Positions 18,701 to 45,792 are shown, numbered from the stretch's first letter. The stretch: DNA of 45,792 bases from Thermoanaerobaculia bacterium (GCA_019911865.1 JAIOJQ010000328.1:1-45792); one strand, 5' to 3'. Notes: a model not told the origin generated them from the sequence alone. Made by a program: numbers and translations.

Positions 18701-18701
18701 G

Positions 18702-25140: not shown

Positions 25141-25152
25141 GATGGGGGCGCG

Positions 25153-27641: not shown

Positions 27642-27863
27642 TCAGTCGGCGCCGGCGCGCTCCATCAGGCTCTGAAAGGTCCACCCGTAGACCAGCGTGC
27701 AGTCGCCCGAGGCCGAGCAGTGGACCTCGGCACGGCGGGGAATGCGGGCGAGGTTGCCGGGCGGGACGTCGATTGCCGGAACCGCGGCGCGCGCCCTCTC
27801 GATCAGCGCTCGGGGCAGCTTCGGGTCGACGGCGTCGATCTCGAGCAGGCGGCCGTCGAGCCG
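27642..27863 (-). pseudogene. Startless 73-codon coding-like remnant in frame behind the PEP-mutase stop codon
   Basis: Reads RLDGRLLEIDAVDPKLPRALIERARAAVPAIDVPPGNLARIPRRAEVHCSASGDCTLVYGWTFQSLMERAGAD* with GC3-rich codons. Confidence 0.45.
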
Positions 27864-28661
27864 CTACTCGGCGGCGAGACCGGAGAGCGCGCCGTGCGCC
27901 GCCCGGGCGGCTTCGGCGAGCGACTTCATCGCCAGCCGCCAGGGGATCGGGCCGTGGCTGATGCGGGCGGCGCCCAGCTCCGCGAGGCGAACGAGCGAAG
28001 GCCCGTCCGGCCGCGCGAAGAGGTTGACCGGCAGCGGCGAGGCGGCGCAGAGCCGGGCGATGCGCGCCTCGTCGGCGAGGCCGGGGACGAAGAGACCGTC
28101 GGCGCCGGCGGCGGCCCAGGCCGCTGCCCGCTCGAGTGCGGCGTCAACCAGGGCGTCGTCCTGCTCGGCGGCGGGCGTGACCAGGAAGAGGTCGGTGCGG
28201 GCGTTGACGAAGAAGGGGACGCCGCAGCGCTCGGCCGCCGCGCGCGCCGCGCCGACCCGCGCCGCACTCTCCGCGACCGGGAAGAGTTCGGAAGTGCCGA
28301 TCCTCCGGTCCTCGAGATTGCAGCCCACCGCCCCGGCCGAGAGGGCGCGGGTGACCGTCTCGGACACCACCTCGGAGCTGGCGCCGTAACCCGCCTCGAG
28401 GTCGACCGACACCGGCAGGTCGACCGCGCCGACGATGCGCTCGAGGTTGGCGATGGCGAGATCGAGCGGGATCTTTTCGCCGTCCTCGTAGCCGTGTGCG
28501 GAGGCGACCGGATGGCTGCCCGTGGCGAGCGCCCGCGCGCCGGCGCCGGCCACCGCGCGGGCCGAACCCGCATCCCAGACGTTGAACAGGACGAGCGGCG
28601 CCCCCGGAATATGCAGCCGCGCGAAGGCGCGCGCCCGTGCGAGCTGATCGGCCATGGCCAC
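27864..28661 (-). CDS. Isocitrate lyase/PEP mutase family protein
   Basis: Motifs NVWDAGSA, GYEDGE, PVSVDLEAGYG, GCNLED, FVNARTD, AGADGLFVPG. Confidence 0.93.
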   Translation of the reverse strand: MAMADQLARARAFARLHIPGAPLVLFNVWDAGSARAVAGAGARALATGSHPVASAHGYEDGEKIPLDLAIANLERIVGAVDLPVSVDLEAGYGASSEVVSETVTRALSAGAVGCNLEDRRIGTSELFPVAESAARVGAARAAAERCGVPFFVNARTDLFLVTPAAEQDDALVDAALERAAAWAAAGADGLFVPGLADEARIARLCAASPLPVNLFARPDGPSLVRLAELGAARISHGPIPWRLAMKSLAEAARAAHGALSGLAAE

Positions 28662-29103
28662 CCCCTCTCTCGTTGCGAGCCCACTCTCTCACTCCTCCGG
28701 CTCCCGTGTCCCGTGGCGGTGCGAGGCATGCGCCTCCTCCAGGCACCGGTCTTCGCTCGGCGCGCGGTCCGTGGCGCCGCCTCCAGGCCGGCCGGGTCGC
28801 TGGCGGTGCTGCGGAGCCGCTCCAGCGGCGATTCGCCGCGACCTTCCCGCCTTATTCTGTCGACGAAACTCCGGTGCCGCCACGACGCGTCCACGCGGGC
28901 TCCGGACCACCCCGGGAAGCGGGTGCTGCGAACGGGCCCGGCAGGTATCCTGACCGGCGGGAGGAGCGCCTTCTTGAATCGACACCCCCTCCGCTTCCGG
29001 ACTCTTGCCGCTGCGACCGTCGAAGCGACCCGGGCCGCCTTCGAGTCCAGGATCGGCTCGCTCCACCGCGACGGCTGAGCGGCGGCCGACCTCGAAAACC
29101 CCG

Positions 29104-30159
29104 ATGGCTCGACTCGCCCCTCTGTTCGCGATCGTGACGGCACTCGCGCTGCCGGGCGCCTCCGCGCGGGCCTTCCACGGCGGCGGCGTCGCGGCCTGCG
29201 GCGGCTGTCACGTCACCCACAACAGCGCGGACGGCTTGCCGATCGTGCCGGGGCCGGCCAACGACTACGCGCTGCGTTCGACGACGCCGAGCGAGGTCTG
29301 CCTGCTCTGCCACGCACAGTCGGCCGGCATGGTGCTCGGCCTCAACCCGCTCGCGCCGCCACCCGAACGGGGCGGCGGCAACTTCGTCTTCCTGCTCGAG
29401 GAGAACCTGAACGACGCGGCCGACGGCGCGACGCGCCCCATCCCGGGTGCGGCGGCGGGACACAACCTGGTCGCCCCCGCGTACGGCCTGACGGCGGACA
29501 CGCGCCACGGCGTCTCGCCCGGCGGCAGCTTCCCGGCCACCGAGATGGGTTGTACGAGCTGCCACGATCCGCACGGCCGCACGAGCTTCCGGATGCTCTG
29601 GGGCGCCGGCACGATCCGCGACGGGCTCTTCGTCTTCGGCGCGCCGGCGCCGGTCGCCAGCGGGCTGCCGCTGACCGCAGGTGCCGTCGAGCGGCGCGGC
29701 GCCCACTCCGCCTACGTCTCGGGCATGAGCGCCTGGTGCGGCAACTGCCACGGCGATTACCACCGCACCGTCGGCACGGAGAACTTCGAGCATCCGAACG
29801 ACGCCATGCTCTCGATCGCCGTCGTCGACCAGTACAACCGCTACCAGGGCGTACTCAATCCGACGGGCGGCAACCCGCTCGACGCCTACCTGCCCGAGGT
29901 GCCGTTCGAGGACGTCTCCACCGCGGTCGAGTCGACCGCGGGCCCGAGCGCGACGAGCCGCCTCTCCTGTCTCTCCTGTCATCGCGCCCATGCGAGCTCG
30001 GCGCCCGCGGCGCTCCGGTGGGACTTCGCGATCGCGACTCTGGGCGAGGACGGCGCCGTCTCGGGCTCGTGGCCGATCCCGAATCCGTACGGCGACCCGT
30101 CGCAACCCGGGCTGTGCTGGAAGTGCCACGCCGGCGGCGCCCCGCCTCCGACGCCCTGA
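29104..30159 (+). CDS. OmcS-family hexaheme cytochrome c, paralog 2
   Basis: Signal peptide ARA|FHGGGVAACGGCHVTHNS, 6 CxxCH motifs, GGNF, GHNL, CHDPHG, MSAWCGNCH, HP, YN.Y, PFED, CLSCHRAHAS, LCWKCH. These match recalled Geobacter OmcS motifs. Confidence 0.88.
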   Translation: MARLAPLFAIVTALALPGASARAFHGGGVAACGGCHVTHNSADGLPIVPGPANDYALRSTTPSEVCLLCHAQSAGMVLGLNPLAPPPERGGGNFVFLLEENLNDAADGATRPIPGAAAGHNLVAPAYGLTADTRHGVSPGGSFPATEMGCTSCHDPHGRTSFRMLWGAGTIRDGLFVFGAPAPVASGLPLTAGAVERRGAHSAYVSGMSAWCGNCHGDYHRTVGTENFEHPNDAMLSIAVVDQYNRYQGVLNPTGGNPLDAYLPEVPFEDVSTAVESTAGPSATSRLSCLSCHRAHASSAPAALRWDFAIATLGEDGAVSGSWPIPNPYGDPSQPGLCWKCHAGGAPPPTP

Positions 30160-30183
30160 GGGCCTCTCTCCCGAGAAGGCGAC

Positions 30184-33100
30184 GTGACCCGACCCGAAAC
30201 GAGCTCGCACGCCTCCGCGCCGCCGCTGCGGCGGCGCGCCACGTTTCGCCTCGTCGCGCTGATCTTCGTGCTCTCCGGCGCGGCGGCGCTCGTCTACCAG
30301 GTCGTCTGGACGCGCGCTCTCGGCCTCGTCTTCGGCAGCTCGCACCTCGCGGTGACGACCGTTCTCGCGGTCTTCATGGGCGGCCTCGCGCTCGGCGGCG
30401 CACTCTTCGGTCGCCGGGTAGGCAGCGAGCGCCGGCTGCTCCGGCTCTACGGCCGGCTCGAGCTCGGCATCGCCGCCGCCGCGCTCGGCTTCGCCCTGCT
30501 CGTGCGTGCCTATCCGCTCCTCTATGTCCCGCTCGCGCGCCTGGGCGAGAGCTCGCCCCTCTACCTCTCGATCCTGCGCGTCGGCTTCGCCGCCCTTCTG
30601 CTCCTGGTTCCCACGACGCTCATGGGCGGCACGCTGCCGGTCCTCGCGGCCTTCGTCGGCGGGCGCGGTCGGGAATTCGCGGCAAGGCTCTCGTTGCTGT
30701 ACGCGCTCAACACCTTCGGAGCGGTGCTCGGGGCCGGCGCGGCCGGATTCGTGCTCCTCCGCTTCTTCTCGGTCTCCACCAGCCTCGGCGTGGCGATCGG
30801 CATCAACGTCCTGCTCGGCTTCGCCTGCCTCGCGCTCGACCGGCGGTTGCCGTCCGCCGCCTCGCCGGAGCCCGAAGCCGCCACGCCCCCGGCGCCGGCG
30901 AGCCCCGTCGGCTCGCCGCGGCCCATTTCGGATCCTCTCCCTGGCCGCCTCGTGCTCTTCGGCGCCGGCGTCTGCGGCTTCGCCGCGCTCGGCTACGAGG
31001 TGCTCTGGACGCGCGTGCTCGGCATGGTGATCGGGGCGAGCGTTTACGGCTTCACCGTGATGCTGATGGCCTTCCTGACCGGCATCGCCCTCGGCAGCTC
31101 GGCCTACGGAGCCTGGAACCGCAAGCGGTCGGCACGAGTCGACCGCGGGCCCGATGCGGCGGTCCGCACCTTCGCGATCGTGCAGGTCGCCATCGGCGCC
31201 GCCGGTCTCGCGGTGACCGGCGCCTTGCGGGAGCTGCCGTCGCACGCCTACCAGCTCCAATGGTCGCTCCTCGGCGGACCCGCCCACGGCTTCGCGACCC
31301 GCCAGGCGATCGATTTCCTGCTCGCCTTTCTCTACGTGCTCGTACCGGCCTTTCTCTCGGGGCTCGCCTTCCCGCTCGCGGCGCGCATTCGCGCCGAGCG
31401 CGGTGGCGAGCCGGCCTGCGCGGTCGGCGAGACTCTCGCCGTGAATACCGTCGGCGCGATCGCGGGGGCGGCAGCGAGCGGCTACGTGCTGGTCCACCTG
31501 GTCGGCATCGAGCGCTCGCTCCAGCTCCTGTCGCTCGCTGTCGCGGGCTGCGGACTGGTCGTCGCGGCCAGCCTGCGCGGCCCCCGCCTCGCCGTCGCCG
31601 CCGCGGCGGCGATCGGTGTCGCCGCCCTCCTGCTCGCCTCCGCCGGCGACGCGCTGCGCTCCTGGGACCGGCGCTTCTTCGCCGTCTACCAGTCGAACCG
31701 GCCCGACAAGTTCTCGACCCCCGAGAAGACGCGCGACACCCTGCGCAACACCGACGTGCTCCACTACGCCGAGGGGGTGCAGGCGATAGTCAGCTCGATC
31801 AAGGTCAAGGGCGGCACCCAGTCGTTCATCACCAACGGCCGGATCGAGGCGACGGACAACCCGCCGGACCTCGCCTGCCAGTACACGCTCGGGCACCTGC
31901 CGATGCTCCTGCACCCCGAGCCGCGGAAGGTCTTCGTGCTCGGCACCGGCAGCGGCATGACGCTCGGCGCGACCGCCGCTCATCCCTCGGTCGAGCGCGT
32001 CACCCTCGCCGAGATCGAACCCGCCGTGCTCGGCGTCGCGCGCACTTTCGCCCGCTACAACCACGATGTTCTCGAGGATCCCCGTCTGCGCGTCGTGCTC
32101 AACGACGGCCGCAACTTCCTGCTCACGACGCGCGAGCGTTTCGATGTCATCACCGCCGACCCCATCCATCCCTGGTTCAGCGGCGCCGGCTACCTCTACA
32201 CGAAGGAGTATTTCGACCTCGCGTCATCACGGCTCGCGCCCGGCGGCGTGATGTGCCAGTGGCTGCCGATCTACGAGCTGGATGCCGCGAATCTGCGCTC
32301 CATCGTTCGCACCTTCCTGTCGAGCTTCGAGCACGTGCTCGTATGGCTCACCCACTACGACGCGCAGCTCGTCGGCAGCAATGCGGCCTTCCGGATCGAC
32401 GAGCGAGAGCTCGACCGCCGCATCGCCCAGCCGGCCGTTCGCGGCGACCTCGACCGCATCCAGATGGGCTCGGCCCGCGACCTGCTCGCCTTCTTCGCCT
32501 TCGGCCGGCCCGGGGCCGAGGCTTACTCGGCTGGCGCCCGCCTGAATACCGACGACAATCTCTATCTCGAGTTTTCCGCCCCGCTGTCCATGGAGGAGCC
32601 GGCGCTCATCGCCGAGAACTTCGCCGGCCTGGTCGCCCATCGGGAGAGCCTGCTGCCCTACCTCGCGCCCGCCGACGGGGAGGAGCGGAGCCGGCAGGAG
32701 GCGCGCGCGTCGGCGGCACTGACCGCCGCCCGCATCGCCGATCCGATCCGTCACCGTGAACTGGCCGGGGAGATCGGCCCGACGGAGGCCGCGCGACTCG
32801 CCGCCGAACTCGGCCCCGCCCTGGGGGACTACGGACCCTGGCGCTACCTGCTCGGCGAGTTCGCGCGCGACCGGGCCCAGGCGCCGCAGCTTCTCCGCCA
32901 GGTTTTCCTGCCAGCGGTCAAGCCCGGGGGCGCCGTGGAGCCGATCCGGCTCGGCGCGATAGCCCGGCGGATGACCGGGGTGATCACGACGCTCGACTTC
33001 GTCGACGGCCGCGACGGTCGCGTGCTGGCGCACCACGAGATCCTGGGAGGACCCGAAGGCGCGGCCGGCGAGCTCGTCGAAGCCGCGTTCCGGGACGTCC

Positions 33101-33243
33101 GGGAGGCCTACGCCGCCGAGCGCCGCGCGGCGAGCGCGCGCGGCGAGAGCGCGCCGGCCGAGGCCAGGCTCCTCGAGCGCCTCGCCGCGGTCCTCGGCAG
33201 CCGCCTCGCCCGGACGGACGACACCGGCCTTCCCGTTCGCTGA
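30184..33243 (+). CDS. Fused MFS-like membrane domain/spermidine synthase-like (SAM-binding) protein
   Basis: Motifs SGAAALVYQVVW, FMGGLALG, LYALNTFG, VLGTGSG, AEIEP, NDGRNFL, FDVITADP, QWLP, NTDDN. Confidence 0.92.
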   Translation: MTRPETSSHASAPPLRRRATFRLVALIFVLSGAAALVYQVVWTRALGLVFGSSHLAVTTVLAVFMGGLALGGALFGRRVGSERRLLRLYGRLELGIAAAALGFALLVRAYPLLYVPLARLGESSPLYLSILRVGFAALLLLVPTTLMGGTLPVLAAFVGGRGREFAARLSLLYALNTFGAVLGAGAAGFVLLRFFSVSTSLGVAIGINVLLGFACLALDRRLPSAASPEPEAATPPAPASPVGSPRPISDPLPGRLVLFGAGVCGFAALGYEVLWTRVLGMVIGASVYGFTVMLMAFLTGIALGSSAYGAWNRKRSARVDRGPDAAVRTFAIVQVAIGAAGLAVTGALRELPSHAYQLQWSLLGGPAHGFATRQAIDFLLAFLYVLVPAFLSGLAFPLAARIRAERGGEPACAVGETLAVNTVGAIAGAAASGYVLVHLVGIERSLQLLSLAVAGCGLVVAASLRGPRLAVAAAAAIGVAALLLASAGDALRSWDRRFFAVYQSNRPDKFSTPEKTRDTLRNTDVLHYAEGVQAIVSSIKVKGGTQSFITNGRIEATDNPPDLACQYTLGHLPMLLHPEPRKVFVLGTGSGMTLGATAAHPSVERVTLAEIEPAVLGVARTFARYNHDVLEDPRLRVVLNDGRNFLLTTRERFDVITADPIHPWFSGAGYLYTKEYFDLASSRLAPGGVMCQWLPIYELDAANLRSIVRTFLSSFEHVLVWLTHYDAQLVGSNAAFRIDERELDRRIAQPAVRGDLDRIQMGSARDLLAFFAFGRPGAEAYSAGARLNTDDNLYLEFSAPLSMEEPALIAENFAGLVAHRESLLPYLAPADGEERSRQEARASAALTAARIADPIRHRELAGEIGPTEAARLAAELGPALGDYGPWRYLLGEFARDRAQAPQLLRQVFLPAVKPGGAVEPIRLGAIARRMTGVITTLDFVDGRDGRVLAHHEILGGPEGAAGELVEAAFRDVREAYAAERRAASARGESAPAEARLLERLAAVLGSRLARTDDTGLPVR

Positions 33244-33256
33244 AGCGACGGCGTGC

Positions 33257-34219
33257 TCAGCGGGGCGGCGCCGGCGCGGCGCCGAGGCCGCCGTAGACCT
33301 GGACGCGGCCATCGGCCGATTGCGCCACGTAGGCGCGGCCCGCGGGGTCGAGCGCGAGGTCGTAGGGGAAGTAGAGCCAGCCCGGGGCGTCGCCCAATCC
33401 GAGGTGTTCCGACAGGCATTCGTTGTCCGCGATCCGCCAGCGCGTCACCATCATGCGCTGGGCGTCGAGCACGACCACGTGCCCTTCGGTATCCAGCGCG
33501 GCAGCGGTGGGATAGCCGAGGTGGAGCGGGCCCGAGCCGCGCACACCGACGCCGCCGACCCGCGCGCCCTCGAGCGTGTAGACGAGCACCCGTCCGCGCA
33601 GCGGGATCGTGACCACGACGCGGTCGCCCGAGACGTCGACGTGGCCGGGCGCCCATTCGGACCGCTCGTCCTCGGGATCCTCGGCGCCGAGGTCGATGCC
33701 GCCGAGGACGTGGCCGTCGCGGTCGGCGATCCAGACCTTCGAGTTGGCGCCGTCGGCGAGGAAGATCCGATCGCCGTCGAGCGACAGCGCGACCGAGCCG
33801 AGCGCGGGCGGCACGCTCCCCTCCGGCAGGTCGACGATCGGCACCTCGCGCCGGAAGCGACCGTCGAAGTCGATCTCGACGAGCGCCAGCCCCGGACCGC
33901 GGCGCGCGAGGACGAGGAGAAAGCCTTCGGGGTCGACCGCGAGATCCTCGGGCGACGCGAGCTCCTCGCCGCCCAGGATCTGCGCCTCGAACTGGCCCTC
34001 GCGGTCGAAGATCAGGATCCGGCTCGTCCGCGGGTCGCAGACGAAAACCTCGCCGGTGTGGGGATCCGCCGTCACGCAGTTGCCGTAAGCGATGTCGTCG
34101 CCGGCGACCGGCAGGCTCAAGCGCCCGAGGTAGCGCACCTCGGCCGCCGAAACCGTGGCGGGCGACGCCAACACGACGAGGAGCGCCGCGAGAGTGCGGA
34201 GCAGGACCCGGCCGGTCAA
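33257..34219 (-). CDS. Secreted NHL-repeat beta-propeller protein
   Basis: Signal peptide. Repeats SPEDLAVD, YPTAAALD, FPYDLALD. Confidence 0.85.
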   Translation of the reverse strand: MTGRVLLRTLAALLVVLASPATVSAAEVRYLGRLSLPVAGDDIAYGNCVTADPHTGEVFVCDPRTSRILIFDREGQFEAQILGGEELASPEDLAVDPEGFLLVLARRGPGLALVEIDFDGRFRREVPIVDLPEGSVPPALGSVALSLDGDRIFLADGANSKVWIADRDGHVLGGIDLGAEDPEDERSEWAPGHVDVSGDRVVVTIPLRGRVLVYTLEGARVGGVGVRGSGPLHLGYPTAAALDTEGHVVVLDAQRMMVTRWRIADNECLSEHLGLGDAPGWLYFPYDLALDPAGRAYVAQSADGRVQVYGGLGAAPAPPR

Positions 34220-35133
34220 CGGCCACTTCCGATCACGTCGAAGAGCTGGGCGCGACCGTTGCCGCCGTCGGAGACCAGCAGGGCACCGTTGGGCAGGCGC
34301 GCGAGCGCGTCCGGGAAGTAGAGCTGGCCCGGCTCCCAGCCTTTGCCGCCGCCGAGGCCGAGCAGCTGGCCCTCGCCGTCGAGGACGACGACCCGGTGCT
34401 GATGGCGGTCGAGGACGAAGAGGCGACCGCCGGGCTCGGCCACGATCCCCGCGGGCCAGAGCGGCACCGGGCTCTCCGAGGGCACCCGCATCCGCCCTGC
34501 GGGTCGGCCCTCCGCGTCGAAGCGCTCGAGCGCGCCGCGCTCGCCGATGCCGACCCAGAAGCCGCCGGCGCCGTCGCTCGCGAGCGCGGTGACGTTGCCC
34601 GCGATCGCGGCCCGAGCGACGACGGACGACCCCTGGAGCTTGGCGACCCGCCCGCGGCGCGCGTCCCAGACCAGCAGGCCGCCGTCCGAGGACTCCGCGA
34701 TGCGGCCGGCGACGATGCCGTCCGGCAGCGCCAGCTTGCGCGGCTCCTCCGCCGATGCGCCGCCGCGCACCGCCAGGAGCTCGGAGCCGGCGCCGCGCAG
34801 CACGGCGAGATACTCCCCGCCCACGAACGCCAGCGCGGCGGGCGGCGCCGGCAGGGCGACCTCGCGGCGCAGCGGCCAGCCGGATCCGACCCGGTGGAGA
34901 ATCAGCAGACGGTTGCCGTGCGCGTCGGCGACCGCGATCTCGTCGGCGCCGCCCACTGCCACCGCGACCGGCCAGCGCAGCGGGCGCTCGGCCGGTCCGT
35001 CGACCACCGCGGCGTAGCGCAGCAGGCGCTGGGCGAGCTGCTGGGTGAGGGCGGGCGCGGCGATCGCGACGACGAGCGCGAGCGCGATGGCGAGCGGGCG
35101 GCCGCCGCGCCGGGCGAGGCTTCGGGCGGGCAT
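34216..35133 (-). CDS. Secreted NHL-repeat beta-propeller protein
   Basis: Signal peptide. Repeats WPVAVAV, WPAGIVA, GQLYFPDALA, VSDGGNGRAQLF. Confidence 0.82.
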   Translation of the reverse strand: MPARSLARRGGRPLAIALALVVAIAAPALTQQLAQRLLRYAAVVDGPAERPLRWPVAVAVGGADEIAVADAHGNRLLILHRVGSGWPLRREVALPAPPAALAFVGGEYLAVLRGAGSELLAVRGGASAEEPRKLALPDGIVAGRIAESSDGGLLVWDARRGRVAKLQGSSVVARAAIAGNVTALASDGAGGFWVGIGERGALERFDAEGRPAGRMRVPSESPVPLWPAGIVAEPGGRLFVLDRHQHRVVVLDGEGQLLGLGGGKGWEPGQLYFPDALARLPNGALLVSDGGNGRAQLFDVIGSGR

Positions 35134-36404
35134 CACTGGTTCCTCCTCGCCATCGATTTGTGGCAACTGACGCAGAGATCGGTCACCTCCCCGGCGTGGA
35201 GGTACTTGGGGTAGGGCGCCTCGTGGATCGCGTGACAGGAGCCGCAGTCCATCGGCGCTCCCGAGCGCGGATCGAGCTTGTCCTCGCCGAGGGGATGGCT
35301 GACCCCGTGCTGGTGGGAGTGGCAACTGCTGCAGACCGCGACCGGATCGTCGACGAACAGGCGCGGCTGCCCGGCGCCGTGCGGCGCGTGGCAGGTGGTG
35401 CACGAGACCTGCCCCGCGTGCAGGGCGAAGCGCCCGGGCTGCCGGGAGGCGGCGCCGCCCGGATCGTGACAAGCGAGGCAGGTCGCCTCCTCCTTGCGCT
35501 GGAGGATCGCCGCGCCCTCCCCCGCGTGCGGGTTGTGGCAGTCGGTGCAGCGCCCGCCCGCCGCCGAGACGTGGCCGAAGCGCGCCTGGCGCGACTCCTC
35601 GACCTGGTCGGCGTGGCAGTCGCCGCACAGCTCGTCCTCGGGCTTGACCAGGGCGAAAGGGCGCTCCGCGGAGCTCGCGACGTGACAGGTCGAGCACGTG
35701 CCGCTGCCGAACGGCTCGTGGACGATCTGCCGGAGCAGTCCGGGCCGATCCGAGGCGTGCGGATCGTGGCAGGTCGCGCATTCGGCCTTCTCGACCGGGT
35801 AGCCGCCGTGAATCGACCGGAAGCGGGCGTCGACGGCGTGGCAGCTCGTGCACGAGGCGCCCGGCTTGATCAGCCCCGGCGTGTCGCTGGCGTGCGCCTC
35901 GTGACAGGTCGCGCACCGGCCTTGCGCGAACGGCGCGTGCGGGGACTTGCGCTGCTGCCACTCCGCGACGTCGACGTGGCACTCCTGGCAGAGCTCGGTC
36001 GCCGGCCGCGCGAGGAGGCCGGCGAAGGGGGCACCGTGCGCGGAGTGACAGATGGCGCAGCGCGCCTCCGCGACCGGCGCATGGACCACCTTGCGCGCCA
36101 GCTGGGCGGTAACGTCTTCGTGGCAGCGCGCGCACAGCGGCCCGGGCTGATCGAGGAGCAGGCCCTCGAGGCGGGAGACGTGGGGGTTGTGGCACGCGGA
36201 GCAGTCGCCCTCCGCGGCGGGCGGATGCTTCACCTTCGCCGCCAGCGCGTCCGCCAGGTCGTGGCACTCGAGGCAGACCTTGAGCTCGTCGACCTCGGCC
36301 GCCTGCGGCGCCCCGGCGGCGAACGCCGCCGTTCCGATCATTGCGAGCGCCGGAGCTCCGAGCAGCGCGAGCGTCGCGAGCGCGATCCGGATCGGAGCGT
36401 TCAT
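35133..36404 (-). CDS. Periplasmic multiheme cytochrome c, 16 CxxCH
   Basis: Start MNAPIRI at 36404, signal peptide, 16 CxxCH in paired CxxCHxPH...LCxxCH units. Confidence 0.93.
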   Translation of the reverse strand: MNAPIRIALATLALLGAPALAMIGTAAFAAGAPQAAEVDELKVCLECHDLADALAAKVKHPPAAEGDCSACHNPHVSRLEGLLLDQPGPLCARCHEDVTAQLARKVVHAPVAEARCAICHSAHGAPFAGLLARPATELCQECHVDVAEWQQRKSPHAPFAQGRCATCHEAHASDTPGLIKPGASCTSCHAVDARFRSIHGGYPVEKAECATCHDPHASDRPGLLRQIVHEPFGSGTCSTCHVASSAERPFALVKPEDELCGDCHADQVEESRQARFGHVSAAGGRCTDCHNPHAGEGAAILQRKEEATCLACHDPGGAASRQPGRFALHAGQVSCTTCHAPHGAGQPRLFVDDPVAVCSSCHSHQHGVSHPLGEDKLDPRSGAPMDCGSCHAIHEAPYPKYLHAGEVTDLCVSCHKSMARRNQ

Positions 36405-38332: not shown

Positions 38333-38351
38333 GAGATCGACGTCCAGAGCC

Positions 38352-40085
38352 TCAGCCGCCGTGACCGGGAACCGCCGGCGCCTCCTCCGGCGCCGTCGGC
38401 AGGATCTCGAAGCGGGCGAGAGCCGCCTGGTCGATCCAGATCTCGGAGCGCTCGCGGAGCTTGGCGATCACCTCGTCGATCCGCGCCACGACCTCCTGGT
38501 TCTCGAGCTTCGCCTTGACGTTGCCCGAGACGGCCTCGAACGGATAGTGGTCCTGCTCCTCGTAGACGTCGACCTGGAGGAGCACCCAGCCGTTCGGGCT
38601 CTCCCTGGGGCCGAGAATGTCGCCCTTGCGCGCGTCGAGGAGATCCTCGCGGAAATTGAGCAGGCCCTCGGTCGCCAGCACCCAGCCGCGGTCGCCGCCG
38701 GCCTCCTTGTAGGAGTCGGTCGAGTTCTGGCGGACGAGCCAGGCGAACTCCGCGCCGCCCTTTGCCAGGCCGGCCAGCCGCTCGGCCTGCTCGCGGGTCG
38801 GCACCGTGAGCTGGAGCAGGTGCAATCGCGGCGGCTTGCGGAACTCGTCGCGGTGCTCGTCGTAGTAGGCACGCGCCTCGGCCGGAGTCACCTCGACCCC
38901 GGCGGCGACCGTCTCCTTGAGGTACTTCGAGGCGAGATGGCTGAGCTCGAGCGCATGCAGCTCGCGCCTCACCTTCGGCGTGTCGCCATAGCCGCGGCGC
39001 AGGCCCTCGGCGATCAGCATCTCCTCGAAGATCAGCTCGTCGAGAACGCCCGGCTTGTATTCGGCGGCGAGCACCGGGTTGGTGACTCCCGACCAGGCCG
39101 TGCCGAGCCGGCCGGCAAGCTCCTTGATGGTCAGCGTGCGGCCGGCGAGCCGCGCCACGGCGCGCTCGGGATCGGCGAACCTGGGCAGCAGCTTGCCGTC
39201 GTGCATGCGCTGAACCTCGATCGACTCGTAGGCCGCCCAGTCGACCTCCAGGCCGAGCGACGGCTCGAGCCGCTCGACGAGCGCCTTGCGGAGCGCGAGC
39301 TCCTGCCGGTGGCGGAGCTCGACCAGGACCCGGCGGGTCCGCTCGGCGAACTTTTCGGGATCGGCCGGCTCGACCTTCACCAGCCGGGCGAGGGTCCAGC
39401 CCCATGGCGTCGCGAGCGGCGCCGAGAGCGCGCCGGGCTCGCTCGTCTTGGCGAACTCGAGCAAGGACTGGTGGAGGTCGGTGAAGGCCGTGTTCATTCG
39501 GCCGCCGCGCCCGGCGTAGGGATCCTGGGAGTCGGTCCCGGCCAGCTCCGCCCAGGCCTCCTCGCCGGCCGGTTCGAGCTTCGCTCGCAGCGCCTCGAGC
39601 TCGGCCCGGTCGCGCCGGGTGAGGATCCGGAGCGTCGCGAACCGGTAGACGTCCGCGTAGACTTCGCGCGCCTTCGGCTCGGAGAAATCGAGCCGCGCCA
39701 GGATCTCCTCGCGGAAGACCTCGCCACGCGCCTTCGACTCGCGGCGCGCCACGAGCTTGCGCGCGAGCTGCGGATCCGCGTCCATCTCGAGTGTCCGCGC
39801 CTCCTGGGCGAGGAGGGTGTCGTTGACCAGGCGGAACATCAGCTGCTCGAGGTCGAAGCGTGACCGCTGCCGAACCTGCTGGGAGCGGTGGATCTCCTCG
39901 AGGACGATCTCGATGTCCTCGCTGTAGAGCGCTTCGCCGTTGACGCGGGCAACGACGGTCGAGCCGGCGTCGGGGGGATCGAGCTCCTGCCCGACGCCCG
40001 GCAGCGGCGCGGCGAGCAAGGCGAGGGCAGAGAGCCAGCGGACGGGTCGCGCCGCACGGCGCGCCCGCGGTGGTGAAGTGCGCAT
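38352..40085 (-). CDS. Parvulin/PpiC-type (SurA/PrsA-like) peptidyl-prolyl isomerase with two rotamase-like modules
   Basis: Start MRTSPP at 40085. Motifs VVARVNGE, EARAYYDEHRDEF, FAWLVRQNSTD...GGDRGW, GPRESPNGW. Confidence 0.85.
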   Translation of the reverse strand: MRTSPPRARRAARPVRWLSALALLAAPLPGVGQELDPPDAGSTVVARVNGEALYSEDIEIVLEEIHRSQQVRQRSRFDLEQLMFRLVNDTLLAQEARTLEMDADPQLARKLVARRESKARGEVFREEILARLDFSEPKAREVYADVYRFATLRILTRRDRAELEALRAKLEPAGEEAWAELAGTDSQDPYAGRGGRMNTAFTDLHQSLLEFAKTSEPGALSAPLATPWGWTLARLVKVEPADPEKFAERTRRVLVELRHRQELALRKALVERLEPSLGLEVDWAAYESIEVQRMHDGKLLPRFADPERAVARLAGRTLTIKELAGRLGTAWSGVTNPVLAAEYKPGVLDELIFEEMLIAEGLRRGYGDTPKVRRELHALELSHLASKYLKETVAAGVEVTPAEARAYYDEHRDEFRKPPRLHLLQLTVPTREQAERLAGLAKGGAEFAWLVRQNSTDSYKEAGGDRGWVLATEGLLNFREDLLDARKGDILGPRESPNGWVLLQVDVYEEQDHYPFEAVSGNVKAKLENQEVVARIDEVIAKLRERSEIWIDQAALARFEILPTAPEEAPAVPGHGG

Positions 40086-41146
40086 CAACCGGACTCCTTC
40101 ATGACCACTGCGGCCTCCCCGCCAGAACCGGCGAGGAGCATACGCGTGGCGATTCGTTCGAGCAGATTCCGCAGCTGCGCGCCGCGCGAGTGGACGCGGC
40201 CGCGACCGAACCACCCCTCTCGGTCGAAGCCGCCACCTTCGAGCGAGCCGACGAAGAGGATGCGGCCCGACTCGGCGTCGAGCAGCCGTACCGCCACCGC
40301 GACCACCGGCTCGGGCGAGCTGCCGCCGCGAACTTCCCAGCGCTCGACCGAACCGGTGACCAGCCGGGCGGCGCCGCAGGCGTCGCGCACCTCGGCGCGG
40401 ACCTCCGCCGAGAGCTCGCCCCATCGGATGCCGCCCGGGCCGCGCAGCGCCGTCGTCACGCAGCCCGGCTCGGCGAGCGGGATCCCGGCGGCGACGAGCA
40501 GCGCGCGCATCGTCTCGGTCGCCGCCGCCGCGACCTCGAGCCCGTCCGCCACCTCGTTGACGGTGAAGGGCACGATGCCGACGAGGTCGGGCGGCGCGGC
40601 GACCCCGACTCCCGGGCTCGCCGGCGCGACCGCGCCGAGCTCGACGCCCGCCAGCAGCTCGGTGACCACCGGCGGCAGCAGGGTCGCGAGGTCGGCGACC
40701 GCGCCGATCCCCAGCAGGCCGCGCGTGTCCAGCCCGGAGCGGGCGACCGCGGCGGCCCACGCCATGCGGCCCGTCCGCCCGTCGTAGAGCCGGGCCGAAA
40801 CCGTGAGATCGGGAACCAGATGCTCGGGCGCGTCGTGGATCGCCACCGAGATCAGCCAGTCGGCCCCGAGCGCCGCCGCGATCGCGCGCAACCGCTCGGG
40901 CGGCGCGCCGTCGGCGTTGCGCAGGCGCTCGGCGCGCAGCGCGGCCCGGGTCCGCTCGGCGTCGATCACGGTCGCCCTCCGGGCGAGCTCGGCAGTCACC
41001 GCCTGCTCGAACCGCGCGCCGAGTCCCTCGACCCGCACGCCCTGCCGCACGGGCAGCAGCGCGACCGTGTCGGCCAGCGCTGCGCGGCCGGCCAGGGCGC
41101 CGGCGGCGAGCAGGAGCGGAGCGAGGAGGGAGCGGCGGCGCATCAC
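40085..41146 (-). CDS. Exported protein with two CsgG/LpoB/GNA1162-like domains
   Basis: Signal peptide. Two units, VALLP...ARLYDGRTGRMAW and VGIVPF...VRLLDAESGRILF. Confidence 0.7.
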   Translation of the reverse strand: MMRRRSLLAPLLLAAGALAGRAALADTVALLPVRQGVRVEGLGARFEQAVTAELARRATVIDAERTRAALRAERLRNADGAPPERLRAIAAALGADWLISVAIHDAPEHLVPDLTVSARLYDGRTGRMAWAAAVARSGLDTRGLLGIGAVADLATLLPPVVTELLAGVELGAVAPASPGVGVAAPPDLVGIVPFTVNEVADGLEVAAAATETMRALLVAAGIPLAEPGCVTTALRGPGGIRWGELSAEVRAEVRDACGAARLVTGSVERWEVRGGSSPEPVVAVAVRLLDAESGRILFVGSLEGGGFDREGWFGRGRVHSRGAQLRNLLERIATRMLLAGSGGEAAVVMKESG

Positions 41147-41149
41147 GGG

Positions 41150-41734
41150 CTACTTGAGCAGCGTCTCCACGAGCCGTCGCACGCAGCGTCGCGTCGTCAC
41201 CGAGAGCGGTTCGCCCTCGTTGCCGAGCAGGCGCGCCGAGGCGACCGAGCCCTTCTCGGTGTGCGTCGCCGCCCAGATGATGGCGCCCGACTCGGTCTCG
41301 ACCAGCTGGGCGTCGACGGTCACCGTCGGGACGCCGGCCGAGCCCGAGCGCAGCACCTCGGACTGCAGGACGGCGCCCGCGATGACCGCCTGGACACCGA
41401 GCGTCTTGCCGAGTTCGACGATCTGTTCGGTGCTCGGACGCTGGGCCCGGTTGGCGCCAAATTTGACCGTGGCGGCGTTCACCTCGCCGGGCTCGACGAC
41501 GTCGACCGCGCCGGTCGCGAGCAGCTCGGTGACCAGCAGTCGGGTCACGCGCGCGGCCGCGGCGGTGTCGTTCGAGTAGTTCTCGAACGGCAGCACGGCC
41601 ACCCTCTCGACGAACGAGAAGTCGATCTTCGGGTTGGTGAACTTCGTCGGCCCCATCGACCCGCAGCCGCTGAGGGCCCCGAGGCAGGCGACGAGGAGGG
41701 CGAGGCATCGGGTCGAGCTTCGGAGTTTTCTCAC
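41150..41734 (-). CDS. Lipoprotein, CsgG/LpoB/GNA1162-like
   Basis: Lipobox LSGC, RVAVLPFEN, LGVQAVIAG, LVETESGAIIW. Likely start GTG 41734. Confidence 0.8.
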   Translation of the reverse strand: MRKLRSSTRCLALLVACLGALSGCGSMGPTKFTNPKIDFSFVERVAVLPFENYSNDTAAAARVTRLLVTELLATGAVDVVEPGEVNAATVKFGANRAQRPSTEQIVELGKTLGVQAVIAGAVLQSEVLRSGSAGVPTVTVDAQLVETESGAIIWAATHTEKGSVASARLLGNEGEPLSVTTRRCVRRLVETLLK

Positions 41735-41750
41735 GGTTCGCACCTTCCGA

Positions 41751-43901
41751 TCAGAAGGAGAGGGTGGTGCCTGCGTTGACACTGGTCACGGCGGTCTCCG
41801 GGCCGTCCGCGATCGCCGAGCTCGAGCGCGTCATGGAGCCGAAGAGCACCAGTCGGGCCGCGAGCCGGTAGTGCAGGGCGAGGCTCTCGTTGCGGGTTTG
41901 CGCGCCTTCGCGCTGGGAGAAGTCGTCCCAGCCGAGCGCGAGGCTCAACTTCGGTCCCGGGTTCCACGACAGATTGTAGCTCTGCCGAATCGTGGCGCCG
42001 GTCGACTCGTCGAAATAGGCGATCGTGCCGCCGAGGCCGAGCGCGGCGCCGGGTGTCCAGCCGAAATCGACGAACAGGCTGGAGCTCTCGAAGCGCGGCC
42101 CGCCGGCGACGGCGCTCTCCGTGCGGCTCCAGGTGTAGCCCCCGCCCAGGCGCCAGTCCTGGCGCGGGCGCATGTCGATCCGCTCCGTCCAGGTGAGCGT
42201 CTCGCGCGCCCCGCCGGTCCCCGGGGTCTCGATCCGGCTGGTCGACAGGTTGGTCACGAGACGCAGCTCGTCGAGCAGGTCGAGGGCGATCGTCGCGCGC
42301 GCGTAGCGGAGGTTCGACAGCTCGTGCCGCTCGTCGGAGTCGGTCCGCACCCCGGTCGCGAGCAACGCGTCGACGGTGTCGAGTGGATTCCAGCGCAGGC
42401 TCGCTCCGAAGTCGTCGGAGATCCGGGTCAGGTCGCGTCCGGCGCCCTCCTCGTAGCGCGAGTGCCGGTAGGCGACCGAGAGCGTCAGGTCGCGCGCGAG
42501 GTCGAGGCCGAGTCCGCCGTTGATCGCCGAACCGGTGGTGTCCCGCCGCACCACGCCGCCCACCGTCGTCGAGTCGTTGCTCGCGTCGGCCGAGGCGTGG
42601 AAGTGGAGTCGCTCCGAGACCCGCCACGCCAGGCTCGCGGCCGCCCGGTAGAGGTCGGCGCTGCGCTCGGGCTGGAGCGCCTCGACCGCGACGTCGCGCA
42701 GGGCGACGAGCTCGGTGACGCGGACCTCGTTCTCCGGGTTGATCGAGACGTTGACGGCCTTCAGATAACGCTCGGAGGACTCCAGGAAGTGGAGCTGATA
42801 GCGGAGCAGATCGGGGTCCCAGGCGCGCTCGAGGATCGTCACCGGCTGCCAGACCAGGCCGTCCGCGCTCTGGTAGACGTCCCAGGCGACCTGGGCGCCC
42901 GAGAGGCGGTCGACGACGATGTCGAGCCGGTGCGCCGGCACCGGCAAACCGAGGTCGAGGGCGAGGTTGCGGAAGGTGTTGGCGCCGCCGATTTCGATCG
43001 CCGGCGCGACCGGCGTCGAGAGGTCGCCGTCGACGAGGCCGGGCGCCGCGTCGAGTTCGCCGAGGGCGGGCGAGAGGTCGACGCCGGCGAAACCGCGCAC
43101 CGCCGCGATCGGCTCCGCGAGCTCGCCCTCGCCGCGGCTCTGCTCGGCTTCGAGCCGGCCGGCGACGCCCGCGAAGGAGAGGCGGACGCGATCGCCCGCC
43201 AGCGCGCGCGCCGCGGTGAGCCGCAGGTCGTGACGCAGCTGGGTGACGTCGAGGGCGGCCGCGCCGCCGGTGAGCTCGTTGTACCTGCCGCCGTACCCGA
43301 CGCTCCAGCGCGGGCGCTCGAACAGCAGGTCGACGCGCCCGACCCGCTGCTCGAGCCCGCGGCCGAGTGCCGCCACGCTCGCCGACTCGTCGGCGAGGTC
43401 GCGCCAGGAGAGGCCGAGGCGGAAGCCGCGCGGCGCGCGCCAGGAGAGGCTGGTGGTGAGCGCGCGCGACTCGAACTCCGCCGCGTCCGCGCCGGTGTCG
43501 GACCGCAGGCTCTCCCAGGCGACGCGCCACGACAGGTTCGGCGCGCCGTAGCGCAGCTCGGCCACCGGCTGCACGGTGGTGCGCGAGAAGGCCTCGACGC
43601 CGTCGAGCTGCGCGGCCTGCTCGGCGTAGAGGCCCGAGAGGTGCAGGCTCAGGTAGGGCGTGAGCTCCTGGACGACCGCGACGTTGGCGGAGTGATCGCT
43701 GCCGTCGACCACGGCGTCGCCGAGATCGGTGCTCGTCCAGCCGAGCCGGAGGGCGCCGTCGAGCGTGCCGGCGCGTGCCGCCGAGGCCGCCGCCAGAGCG
43801 AGCCCCGCCAGAACGAGGCTGCGCCCGGCACCCTCCCGCGAAACCTGCGACGCGCGTCTCACGGCGGGCATTCTCACAGCCAGCTCGAACGCCGCCACCA
43901 T
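41751..43901 (-). CDS. Outer-membrane beta-barrel with an inserted discoidin/F5/8-type-C-like domain
   Basis: Signal peptide, alternating amphipathic strands, C-terminal TLSF. Start is 43871 or 43901. Confidence 0.8.
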   Translation of the reverse strand: MVAAFELAVRMPAVRRASQVSREGAGRSLVLAGLALAAASAARAGTLDGALRLGWTSTDLGDAVVDGSDHSANVAVVQELTPYLSLHLSGLYAEQAAQLDGVEAFSRTTVQPVAELRYGAPNLSWRVAWESLRSDTGADAAEFESRALTTSLSWRAPRGFRLGLSWRDLADESASVAALGRGLEQRVGRVDLLFERPRWSVGYGGRYNELTGGAAALDVTQLRHDLRLTAARALAGDRVRLSFAGVAGRLEAEQSRGEGELAEPIAAVRGFAGVDLSPALGELDAAPGLVDGDLSTPVAPAIEIGGANTFRNLALDLGLPVPAHRLDIVVDRLSGAQVAWDVYQSADGLVWQPVTILERAWDPDLLRYQLHFLESSERYLKAVNVSINPENEVRVTELVALRDVAVEALQPERSADLYRAAASLAWRVSERLHFHASADASNDSTTVGGVVRRDTTGSAINGGLGLDLARDLTLSVAYRHSRYEEGAGRDLTRISDDFGASLRWNPLDTVDALLATGVRTDSDERHELSNLRYARATIALDLLDELRLVTNLSTSRIETPGTGGARETLTWTERIDMRPRQDWRLGGGYTWSRTESAVAGGPRFESSSLFVDFGWTPGAALGLGGTIAYFDESTGATIRQSYNLSWNPGPKLSLALGWDDFSQREGAQTRNESLALHYRLAARLVLFGSMTRSSSAIADGPETAVTSVNAGTTLSF

Positions 43902-43951
43902 CCGCGAGGGTGGCCCCGCCGCAACCCGCGGCGCGGGGCGGCCGGCCCCCC

Positions 43952-43987
43952 AAAAAAAGCGACCCGGGGTGCGGACACCCCGGGTCG
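43952..43987 (-). terminator. Intrinsic terminator after the OmcS-like gene
   Basis: Perfect 12-bp stem CGACCCGGGGTG/CACCCCGGGTCG, 4-nt loop, then C and T7 on the minus strand. Confidence 0.9.
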
Positions 43988-44023
43988 ATGTGGCGCCGGC
44001 AGGCGCCGGATCTCTACCTCAGA

Positions 44024-45175
44024 TCACGGCGTGACGAGGTGGTCGAACTCGTCCTGCGTGTGGCACTTGTTGCAGAGCGACTTCTGGTCGTCGTCCGCCG
44101 GCAGCGTCGCCTGGGCGTACGGGATCTTCCAGGAGCCCGAGGTCGCGCCGTCGGTCTCGATGTTCTGGATCGTGAAGTCCCAGCGGCCCATGTCCTGCGC
44201 CGAGGTGGCGTGGGCGCGGTGGCAGGTGACGCAGGCGACCATCGACGTGCCCGCGGTCGGACCGGCGGTCGAGGTGGTCGTGACCGAGGGATCCTCGAAC
44301 GGCGTGTCCGGCAGGTAGGCGTCGACCACGGTGCCGCTGCCGCAGGGATCGGTCGGGCCGGTCGGCGGGTTGTTGACGCAGTCGGCCGTGCCGCGATACT
44401 CGTTGTACTTGGCGACGATCGTCGCGGTCAGAGCCTCGCCCGACGGGTGGATCAGGTTGCCGGACGAAGCGTGGAAGTCGCCGTGGCAGGTGGAGCACCA
44501 CTCGCTGTAGCCCGAGTGGTAGGCGTTGTGGTTCGCCAGGCCCTCGATCGAGTTGTAGCTGATGCCCTCGGCCACCAGGGTGCCGCCGAACGTCACCTCG
44601 TCCCCGCCGACGTCGATCGTCTGGCCGGTCTGGTAGAGGAAGCGGAAGCTGTCCTGGCCGTGCGGGTCGTGGCAGCTCGTGCACTCGAGCTGGTTGTTCG
44701 CCAGCTCGGCCTGGCCGCCCGGGGGATAGAGCAGCGTGGTGTCCCAGTTGCTGCCCTTGATGCCGGAGCGCAGGTTGTGGCCGGCCCGCTGGCCCGGGAT
44801 CGGGTTGGTCGCGCCGCCGCGGCCGTCGTTGACGTTGTCCTCGAGCAGGAACACGAAGTTGCCGGCGCTGTAGTACTCCTGCAGCGTCGGATTCAGTGGA
44901 TCCGACTCGAACACGTTGTAGCTGGCGCTGTTGTTGCCGTGGCAGCGCAGGCAGGTGTCGGTCGCGTTCGGCAGCAGCAGCAGGTCGGTGTAGCCGAAGC
45001 CCGGCGCCAGGCCCGGCCCGGTGCCGGTGGCGTCGAGGTTCATGCCCAGGTTGTTGGCGCTGTTGTGCATGGTGTGACAGCCCTGGCAGTAGCCGACCGA
45101 CTCGTGGTGGAACGCCATCGCCGGGGCGGCGAGCAGCACCGCGACGGCGGCGATCAGAAGCATCCGGTTCTTCAT
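44024..45175 (-). CDS. OmcS-family hexaheme cytochrome c, probable major nanowire subunit
   Basis: AMA|FHHESVGYCQGCHTMHNS, 6 CxxCH, AGNF, GHNL, NQLECTSCHDPHG, SEWCSTCH, CHRAHA, Q.SLCNKCH..D. AAAGGAG RBS. Confidence 0.9.
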   Translation of the reverse strand: MKNRMLLIAAVAVLLAAPAMAFHHESVGYCQGCHTMHNSANNLGMNLDATGTGPGLAPGFGYTDLLLLPNATDTCLRCHGNNSASYNVFESDPLNPTLQEYYSAGNFVFLLEDNVNDGRGGATNPIPGQRAGHNLRSGIKGSNWDTTLLYPPGGQAELANNQLECTSCHDPHGQDSFRFLYQTGQTIDVGGDEVTFGGTLVAEGISYNSIEGLANHNAYHSGYSEWCSTCHGDFHASSGNLIHPSGEALTATIVAKYNEYRGTADCVNNPPTGPTDPCGSGTVVDAYLPDTPFEDPSVTTTSTAGPTAGTSMVACVTCHRAHATSAQDMGRWDFTIQNIETDGATSGSWKIPYAQATLPADDDQKSLCNKCHTQDEFDHLVTP

Positions 45176-45235
45176 CTGGCGTCTCCTTTCCGTCGCCCTC
45201 GGGCGCGGGAGTTTTCATGTCTGTCCAGCTCTAGC

Positions 45236-45250
45236 GCAACGAGCGTGCCC
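45236..45250 (-). promoter_or_regulatory. Sigma54 (-24/-12) promoter
   Basis: Minus strand reads gGGCACGctcgTTGCg against the consensus TGGCACG-N4-TTGC, 61 bp upstream of the ATG. Confidence 0.75.
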
Positions 45251-45372
45251 GCTTCGCGGCGAGCCGCCGCGCGGACCGCCGGGGCGCGCCGCAAATCGTG
45301 TGTCGAGAATGGGTTGCGAGCCGGACTCGCAGTGCCGGCGAACGACCCGGCGGCGGTGGTGCGGGCGGACGC

Positions 45373-45419
45373 TGCGCAAGTTTCCCCACGGCTCGCCGCG
45401 GCGTGCGAAAAATCTCCCA
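45373..45419. promoter_or_regulatory. Two tandem candidate enhancer-binding-protein sites
   Basis: TGCGCAAGTTTCCCCA (45373-45388) and TGCGAAAAATCTCCCA (45404-45419) are quasi-palindromic and 31 bp apart. Confidence 0.55.
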
Positions 45420-45466
45420 GTCTCCCGGGGTAGGCCGCTCGCGGGAGCGCCTGGGTCGGCGGAGAG

Positions 45467-45792
45467 GCGAAGGCGCCGGCGGTTTCGCTTCGGCAAGAGC
45501 GGCTGGAGCAGTAGTGAGGCACGCGGTCAACTTACGCCGTGGCCGGCGGCGGGAGGCCGCCTGGGCGGGTGGCAGCGTCGTGCTGGCCGGGTAGCGACGA
45601 CCGGCGCGAGGTCAGCCGCGGCCGAGCCGGCGGGCGCGACGGGCGAGCATGGCGTGGGTCGTCGCTACCCGGCCAGCACGACGCTGCCACCCGCCCAGGC
45701 GGCCTCCCGCCGCCGGCCACGGCGTAAGTTGACCGCGTGCCTCACTACTGCTCCAGCCGCTCTTGCCGAAGCGAAACCGCCGGCGCCTTCGC
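45467..45792. repeat. Perfect inverted repeat with 136-bp arms and a 54-bp spacer, running to the window end
   Basis: 45467-45602 is the reverse complement of 45657-45792. Confidence 0.95.

Follow-up and report, generated by a model that had tools for sequence, protein, structure and literature searches.

The genes around omcS in Geobacter sulfurreducens are called the osc (omcS companion) operon in an article that cites Shen et al., 2025 (PMC13194489). As presented there, the roles proposed for the Osc proteins are folding for OscH, secretion for OscE, OscF and OscG, and morphology for OscD; oscC encodes an OmcS-like paralogue, and oscI (GSU2495) and oscJ (GSU2494) encode periplasmic cytochromes (PMC13194489). 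In its title, the osc paper itself describes the machinery as widespread and ancient (Shen et al., 2025, Cell Chem Biol 32:239). We have analysed a 45,792-bp stretch of DNA, hereafter the window, which is one entire contig (C166) of a 3.76-Mb metagenome-assembled genome (MAG) of 458 contigs, and we describe in it a cluster of eleven genes at 29104-45175 that resembles the osc operon. From the sequence, we put a probability of about 0.7 on the cluster serving to make an extracellular OmcS-type hexaheme cytochrome, export it and feed it with electrons, and we infer that its subunits would form filaments.

The window cluster and the G. sulfurreducens operon share a hexaheme subunit of the OmcS family and a gene order of subunit, barrel, lipoprotein, second PelC-like protein, peptidyl-prolyl isomerase (PPIase), 26-heme cytochrome and second multiheme cytochrome, to which NHL propellers are added. 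Both also hold more than one OmcS paralogue (omcS, omcT and oscC in Geobacter, two in the window). The window paralogues flank the cluster convergently, whereas those of Geobacter stand in tandem, and the window host, unlike Geobacter, is an acidobacterium with 71% guanine-plus-cytosine (GC) content. The omcE cluster of Desulfuromonas and Geobacter (bioRxiv 10.1101/2025.10.22.684050) likewise combines a subunit, a large barrel, two beta-propellers and two multiheme cytochromes, but its tetraheme subunit is unrelated, and the description available for it mentions no PPIase or PelC-like genes.

Clusters of this kind have been seen in Acidobacteriota before. OmcS homologues outside Geobacter have been discussed (PMC10954620), and a 2021 report in ISME J describes a marine Acidobacteriota MAG in which genes for OmcS-like hexaheme proteins, periplasmic cytochromes and beta-barrels stand together in clusters (PMC8528874). 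That organism, 'Candidatus Polarisedimenticola svalbardensis' AM4, differs from the window host in class and habitat, and its OmcS-like cluster is read in that report as a possible metal-reducing conduit (PMC8528874). In our own locus scan, a Polarisedimenticolaceae locus (L014) has the order OmcS, barrel, lipoprotein. Among the papers available to us, our literature search for OmcS in Thermoanaerobaculia found nothing beyond the 2021 study and its preprint. An earlier interpretation of this DNA (the sequence-only reading) had proposed that the presence of the gene set in this lineage might be new; this claim is weak, given the 2021 report, the title of the osc paper and the recurrence of the same cluster in 19 of 79 loci from many phyla. 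The locus offers a well-resolved, complete OmcS assembly cluster outside Desulfuromonadia and overturns no current view.

Two OmcS-like hexaheme proteins

The cluster encodes two hexaheme proteins, each with six CxxCH motifs. The gene omcS-like 1 (29104-30159, plus strand) encodes 351 residues with a signal peptide and a predicted mature N-terminus FHGGG; omcS-like 2 (44024-45175, minus strand), the first gene of the minus-strand operon, encodes 383 residues with a mature N-terminus FHHES. In a search of the PDB, the sole significant match of either protein to a solved structure was the OmcS filament subunit (6EF8/6NEF), with E-values to 6EF8 of 3.3e-31 for omcS-like 1 and 1.2e-25 for omcS-like 2. 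Across the two paralogues, the stretches of OmcS aligned are residues 1-152 with 185-349 and 1-150 with 216-350, and in both the first residue of mature OmcS (Phe) aligns with the first residue past the predicted signal-peptide cut. The OmcS orthologue of Geomonas edaphica matches 6EF8 at 5.7e-118 across residues 1-407. A failure of the cytochromes to align with OmcS outside CxxCH had been named by the sequence-only reading as a result that would count against it; both hexaheme proteins align along most of the chain, well outside the motifs, and are OmcS homologues over their full length.

All six CxxCH motifs, seven further histidines and an N-terminal FH...CxxCH..H segment are kept in both proteins. 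Thirteen histidines, six within CxxCH and seven elsewhere, are invariant among the two paralogues, four relatives and the G. edaphica OmcS. By their number in the alignment, the seven outside the motifs would suffice for bis-His ligation of six hemes. One of the conserved positions, H37 of omcS-like 2, lies three residues past the first CxxCH. It is unchanged in 16 of 16 relatives and in 7 of 7 sequences of a second alignment, and aligns with the histidine of the OmcS segment ...CHTMH... We take this residue to be the equivalent of His16 of mature OmcS, presumably the ligand to the next subunit's heme; Wang et al. in 2019 reportedly saw His16 ligate a heme in the neighbouring subunit. Coordination of an OmcS heme by a histidine of the adjacent subunit is likewise described in a published account (PMC9473688).

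The two paralogues are 42% identical to each other. We built a tree (MAFFT and FastTree) of 58 six-heme relatives, restricted to open-reading frames with exactly six CxxCH, at least 80% cover and fewer than 560 residues; it excludes other OmcS-like frames and is used descriptively, with no weight placed on support values. The paralogues fall in separate subclades within a clade of compact-type proteins from Acidobacteriota and phyla of the Fibrobacteres-Chlorobi-Bacteroidetes (FCB) group, apart from the Desulfuromonadia/Nitrospirota clade that holds true OmcS. The omcS-like 1 protein groups with copies from the far ends of other clusters; an additional far-end copy also occurs in a genome of the same order as the window genome (G033, locus L017, labelled Thermoanaerobaculia bacterium) and in another Acidobacteriota genome (G003). 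That two apparently old OmcS paralogues flank the cluster would be a modest addition, possibly a new one. The far-end copy in G003 (G003:C1:207436-208355) lies in two pieces in separate frames, which could reflect a frameshift, a pseudogene or an assembly error. In a library of 1.84 billion proteins, the OmcS-like family counts 566, 227 and 29 representatives at E-values of 1e-3, 1e-10 and 1e-30. The compact subunits could help compare which parts of OmcS polymerisation needs.

Companion genes and PelC-like proteins

Our locus scan of one genome per species returned at least 104 relatives, of which 79 loci were kept and compared by tblastn with the eleven window proteins. Of these loci, 19 have five or more of the six companion genes, and the lipoprotein and the 26-heme protein occur together in 29; many of the others are too short to show neighbouring genes. 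The shared order is subunit, barrel, lipoprotein, 353-residue protein, PPIase, 26-heme and 16-heme cytochrome, and it is uniform in the 19 loci except that the best-match positions of the two multiheme proteins are swapped in L051 and L074. Record titles of these loci name Acidobacteriota, Thermoanaerobaculia, Fibrobacteria, Zixiibacteriota, Krumholzibacteriota, Ignavibacteria, Planctomycetota, Desulfobulbaceae, 'delta proteobacterium' and Geomonas. One locus of the scan, L066, is titled as a Heimdallarchaeota archaeon MAG and carries an OmcS-like gene next to bacterial-type 26-heme, 16-heme and PPIase genes; it is probably a misbinned bacterial contig.

In the Geomonas edaphica omcS cluster, the OmcS, NHL, barrel, lipoprotein, PPIase and 26-heme proteins are collinear with and reciprocal best matches to those of the window. 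Because these genes match, in order and reciprocally, a cluster that holds a true OmcS, the comparison identifies the window cluster as osc-type. It has a PPIase, as OscH; a barrel, a lipoprotein and a third protein between subunit and PPIase; and large multiheme cytochromes after the PPIase, as with oscI and oscJ. The third member of this putative OscE/F/G set is matched by position, size and a shared PelC-like domain only. Of the two NHL propellers, neither with CxxCH, one is a reciprocal best match to the Geomonas NHL protein; one or other could be the counterpart of OscD, a beta-propeller-like morphology factor. Neighbours not orthologous to the companion genes had been named by the sequence-only reading as a result that would count against it, and it held that the gene content is that of the omcS neighbourhood. 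The collinear matches bear out the orthology; the second point stands for the companions and fails for a fused major facilitator superfamily (MFS)/spermidine-synthase gene, which is no conserved part of the cluster.

The cluster is convergent, with two genes on the plus strand and nine on the minus strand. Overlaps or short gaps separate the nine, and this tight packing points to an operon-like block and not a chance grouping. After omcS-like 2, the minus-strand block continues with the outer-membrane beta-barrel protein (41751-43901; 716 residues, signal peptide, C-terminal Phe), which is 23% identical over its full length to a 745-residue Geomonas protein (E 1e-21). The lipoprotein gene (41150-41782; lipobox LSGC) is listed at 210 residues, although its true start may be further in; its product is 34% identical to a 189-residue Geomonas lipoprotein. 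It is followed by an exported protein of 353 residues (40085-41146) with a signal peptide and two PelC-like domains, and by a SurA-like periplasmic PPIase chaperone (38352-40085; 577 residues; Rotamase_2 2.5e-27, SurA_N_3 5.5e-4 and under its cut-off), 21% identical over its full length to the 609-residue Geomonas PPIase. Next come the 26-heme (36401-38332; 643 residues) and 16-heme (35133-36404; 423 residues; Paired_CXXCH_1 6e-76) periplasmic cytochromes and NHL beta-propellers a (34216-35133; 305 residues; NHL 2.9e-13) and b (33257-34219; 320 residues; NHL 2.2e-13), both with signal peptides. NHL b is the reciprocal best match of the 358-residue G. edaphica NHL protein adjoining omcS. The four cytochromes, all matched by Paired_CXXCH_1, together carry 54 CxxCH motifs, and every gene listed by the sequence-only reading, as well as this total, was found in place.

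The remaining gene, on the plus strand, is the MFS/spermidine-synthase fusion (30184-33243; 1019 residues; NF037959 124 bits against a cut-off of 40, Spermine_synth 3.5e-24), which starts 24 bp downstream of omcS-like 1. It adjoins the cluster only in the window genus, where its counterpart in genome G014 is 81-82% identical by tblastn. In G003 and in Geomonas silvestris (L038) the gene is found close to the cluster; G002, G004 and G033 carry it in another part of the genome.

Two of the companions are homologues of PelC, as family profiles indicate. PelC is described as a periplasmic ring of twelve lipoproteins on the outer-membrane exporter PelB (PMC12141448). A profile of 24 homologues of the lipoprotein matches PelC structures at 6e-11 (5t11), 1.1e-10 (5t10) and 7.3e-9 (9h80_C), followed by GNA1162 and LpoB; the 210-residue protein by itself has weak LpoB/CsgG matches. 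A profile of 16 homologues of the 353-residue protein matches 9h80_C in two stretches (1.3e-18) and 5t11 (7.9e-15), and the protein by itself has no Pfam match above noise. In a profile-profile comparison, the lipoprotein family is matched at 99.6% by the C-terminal half of the 353-residue protein, and the two proteins match each other at 3e-07 in BLASTP. From the PelC matches, one of them in two stretches, the cluster encodes one single-domain and one tandem PelC-type protein. The lipobox cysteine (C40) of the 210-residue protein is invariant in 24 of 24 sequences; the 353-residue protein has no lipobox, unlike its Geomonas counterpart.

This homology suggests an export funnel like that of PelBC in Pseudomonas aeruginosa. 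The lipoprotein and both halves of the 353-residue protein resemble PelC, and their genes adjoin that of an outer-membrane barrel, as PelC goes with PelB. Unlike PelBC, which handles a polysaccharide, the presumed cargo in the window is a heme protein polymer, there are two PelC-type genes of which one is a tandem duplication, and the barrel has no similarity to PelB detectable by profile search. For the secretion step, which reviews still call speculative (PMC12307469), the PelC homology of two companions provides a specific hypothesis of how a cytochrome polymer might cross the outer membrane.

The barrel protein of the window has no Pfam match of its own. Within its family (the window protein and 19 homologues scanned), 4 of 20 members match OMP_b-brl, 3 match Porin_4 and 3 match F5/8 type C, the last with E-values as good as 3.9e-07; in the PDB, the centre of the family profile weakly matches the N-domain of galactose oxidase (E 0.004). 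An Atlas search returned unnamed neighbour clusters and low-scoring outer-membrane-protein leads only. The apparent central discoidin-like insert, at about residues 285-400, is of a carbohydrate-binding type that is odd in a protein-export barrel; it could bind a surface glycan or the filament.

Profile evidence indicates that the 26-heme cytochrome is MtrA/DmsE-like and built of paired-CxxCH units: it matches PDB chain 6r2q_A at 3.8e-17 and the DmsE-family model at 272 bits (cut-off 192). The 657-residue Geomonas protein Ge_657 is 35% identical to it (E 1e-100), and each has 26 CxxCH. Chain 6r2q_A (333 residues) is labelled 'Cystathionine beta-synthase' in the PDB table; the label looks misassigned, and we take the chain to be the decaheme MtrA of the MtrCAB structure. 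The best full-length match of the 16-heme protein in the Geomonas locus is the 26-heme Ge_657 and not its own positional counterpart, the next gene Ge_223c, which is cut by the locus end and 40% identical over the part present. Elsewhere in the MAG, contigs C236, C63, C223 and C443 carry further multiheme frames with 21, 19, 17, 11, 10 and 8 CxxCH; the genome has 18 stop-to-stop frames with at least four CxxCH in all, some of which may be overlapping.

Proposed function and competing explanations

In the mechanism that we propose, which is that put forward for Geobacter with one detail added, the subunit, mainly the omcS-like 2 product from the head of the operon, would be exported by Sec and loaded with heme. 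It would be made in excess from this first gene, ahead of a terminator-like hairpin (43960-43987, minus strand; 12-bp stem with 10 G-C pairs and a T-run) that lies between omcS-like 2 and the barrel gene. Sites with a hairpin and T-run number 3 in the region against a shuffle mean of 3.7, so that the scan as a whole is not above chance, and of 18 other loci, 8 have a comparable element after the omcS-like gene, a count made with no shuffle control. The SurA-like PPIase may keep subunits competent in the periplasm until they exit through the barrel, under which a putative ring of the PelC-like lipoprotein and the tandem PelC-like protein would form a periplasmic funnel by analogy with PelBC. 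Outside, subunits could polymerise head to tail, with the conserved histidine after the first CxxCH ligating the next subunit's heme as in OmcS. The 26- and 16-heme cytochromes would bring electrons through the periplasm to the filament base, the NHL propellers might act on filament form or anchoring, and the system as a whole would pass electrons to electrodes, minerals or partner cells.

We tentatively extend this mechanism to a fuller picture, which we think possible and on balance doubtful, in which a PelBC-homologous machine (a PelC-type ring and tandem protein leading to a discoidin-bearing barrel) exports nanowires of a compact OmcS lineage with two ancient paralogues, serving Acidobacteriota and FCB-group phyla on electrodes. 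If it is true, and if the PelC link is absent from the osc paper, it would give the secretion step a concrete architecture.

The stretch 43000-45700, which holds omcS-like 2, was found in 20 run rows from nine studies, six of the rows being RNA; two of the 20 may be the source of the window DNA, and run labels include bioreactor, bioanode and biofilm metagenome. In three RNA libraries from two studies (X16, X17 and X18), single contigs cover omcS-like 2 almost end to end, and in X16 further contigs match parts of seven more genes of the cluster without a single difference. The word depth of the omcS-like 2 contig exceeds that of neighbouring contigs in X16 (67 against 4-11), X17 (18.7 against 3-5) and X18 (243 against 5-24), a contrast that is a hint only, as the RNA runs were chosen by means of this very gene. 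Two RNA contigs stop in adapter letters, at 44007 and 44017. Low cover of omcS-like 1 in X16-X18 is no evidence of its silence, and X15, with a flat depth of about 50, may contain DNA. With the cluster itself, the recurrence of this stretch in bioanode and bioreactor samples and in RNA libraries marks out Thermoanaerobaculia as candidate electroactive organisms of engineered systems. The PelC link and the bioanode and RNA occurrence are modest additions, possibly new.

Several observations weigh against our interpretation. The mature subunits, at 330 and 362 residues, are 45-77 residues shorter than OmcS (407), three long OmcS insertions are absent from both, and omcS-like 2 and most relatives have an acidic C-terminal tail ending in TP that OmcS does not have; omcS-like 1 keeps only the final TP. 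Given the shorter chains, the absent insertions and the added tail, the subunit interface may differ from that of OmcS. Among the companions, a 465-residue Geomonas lipoprotein encoded between omcS and the barrel has no counterpart in the window cluster, the 353-residue protein resembles its positional Geomonas counterpart only via the shared PelC-like domain, and the Osc letter given to each gene would follow from gene order only. The RNA data are assembled contigs, in which depth cannot rank genes and DNA may be present. There is also dispute over what OmcS filaments do in the physiology of Geobacter itself (PMC13194489).

The most substantial alternative, although an unlikely one, is a porin-cytochrome conduit that makes no filament: the barrel would sheathe the 26-heme protein, and the hexaheme proteins would be monomeric surface reductases, like MtrC in MtrCAB of Shewanella. 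The MtrA/DmsE-like paired-CxxCH units of the 26-heme protein, with its match to a decaheme chain and its score above the DmsE-family cut-off, fit such a conduit, as does the nearby gene for a large barrel of MtrB-like size, and the 2021 report interpreted such clusters of marine Acidobacteriota as porin-cytochrome systems (PMC8528874). Of the MtrAB-type pair, an MtrB-family barrel with an MtrA-family decaheme, only the cytochrome side matches in the window: searches of Pfam, NCBIfam and PDB profiles gave the barrel no MtrB-type or other porin-cytochrome match, its family matches no solved porin-cytochrome barrel in the profile search, and the cytochrome has 26 hemes against 10. The candidate surface cytochromes belong to the OmcS and not the MtrC family and retain the histidine for ligation between subunits, PelC-type funnel proteins typical of polymer export are present, and the Geobacter operon orthologous to this cluster has been linked to the assembly of nanowires. 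A conduit and a filament may also coexist, with a barrel that both anchors the filament and passes electrons.

The direction of electron flow and the origin of the cluster could also be read differently. Electrons might flow inward, from a cathode, Fe(II) or a partner cell, to the nitrate respiration encoded 17 kb away on the contig; this locus (2598-12946) comprises narGHJI and the genes of a NarK-family transporter and a diheme cytochrome c. In principle, multiheme wires can conduct in either direction. We nevertheless regard inward flow as improbable: neither expression nor conservation links the nar and cytochrome loci, and the 'bioanode' label among the samples that hold the stretch fits outward transfer. 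When 9100-29060 was queried, which includes most of narG (9100-12159) and leaves out narHJI and narK, only a PEP-mutase gene and the stretch just before omcS-like 1 gave long nucleotide matches in G014 and G017, the two same-genus genomes that also have the cytochrome cluster. An origin outside the host, as a misbinned Desulfuromonadia contig or a very recent transfer, would fit the 6.2% contamination estimated for the MAG (completeness 92.6%) and the patchy spread of the cluster: matches were found in 5 of 41 relatives including the window genome, in 2 of the 13 other species of the genus and, at E-values up to 1e-10, in 15 of 401 genomes sampled evenly across the phylum, 9 of them full-length and strong. 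This reading is effectively refuted. The GC fraction of the contig (0.711) is close to that of the genome (0.710), its tetranucleotide correlation with the genome is 0.995 (rank 38 of 58), a composition typical of the MAG, and the closest relatives of the cluster's proteins are in Acidobacteriota and not in Desulfuromonadia. Same-genus genome G014 carries the entire cluster, including the MFS fusion, within a 1.2-Mb contig, at 85-93% nucleotide identity to the window, against 88-89% for rpoB. Typical composition and the presence of the same cluster in G014 at rpoB-like identity lead us to conclude from these comparisons that the cluster is native to a sub-clade of the window genus. Recent transfer within the genus was considered and dropped on the same identities.

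Host genome and surroundings of the cluster

The host belongs to Acidobacteriota, class Thermoanaerobaculia, and not to Desulfuromonadia, as judged from marker and protein similarity. The best 120 matches of the MAG rpoB include 13 labelled with an organism, of which 12 are Thermoanaerobaculia and one Holophagales, at 82-86% identity; the nearest named relative of the omcS-like 2 protein, 73% identical, is also from Thermoanaerobaculia. Genome G017 gave no long rpoB match, probably because of an assembly gap. The guess of the sequence-only reading that the lineage was possibly Acidobacteriota thus agrees with rpoB, genome placement and protein relatives, and its picture of a high-GC, nar-carrying genome unlike Geobacter holds as well: narGHJI and narK were located, and GC along the window runs from 63 to 76%. 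Third-position GC was used to pick real reading frames.

The narGHJI and narK genes occupy 2598-12159. Their products score 1395 bits for narG (cut-off 1084), 640 for narH (524) and 113 for narI (105.6), and narJ falls just under its cut-off (57.8 against 59.35); a NarK-family MFS transporter is present, and the diheme cytochrome c gene upstream of narG extends the locus to 12946. GC in the locus is 63-69%, compared with 71-76% elsewhere in the window, and neither G014 nor G017 gave a long nucleotide match to 9100-12946, the part of it that was queried (the cytochrome c gene and most of narG). The nar locus is possibly an acquired island.

The left edge of the cluster lies at about 29066, where a gene of the phosphoenolpyruvate (PEP) mutase family (27864-28661) adjoins omcS-like 1. 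This junction is the same in G017, and in G014 the PEP-mutase gene lies about 500 kb from the cluster; its differing position indicates that the left neighbourhood has been rearranged within the genus. At the convergence point between the MFS fusion and NHL b, contig C1 of G014 has about 1.8 kb of extra DNA (L089, about 11200-13040) that the window does not have.

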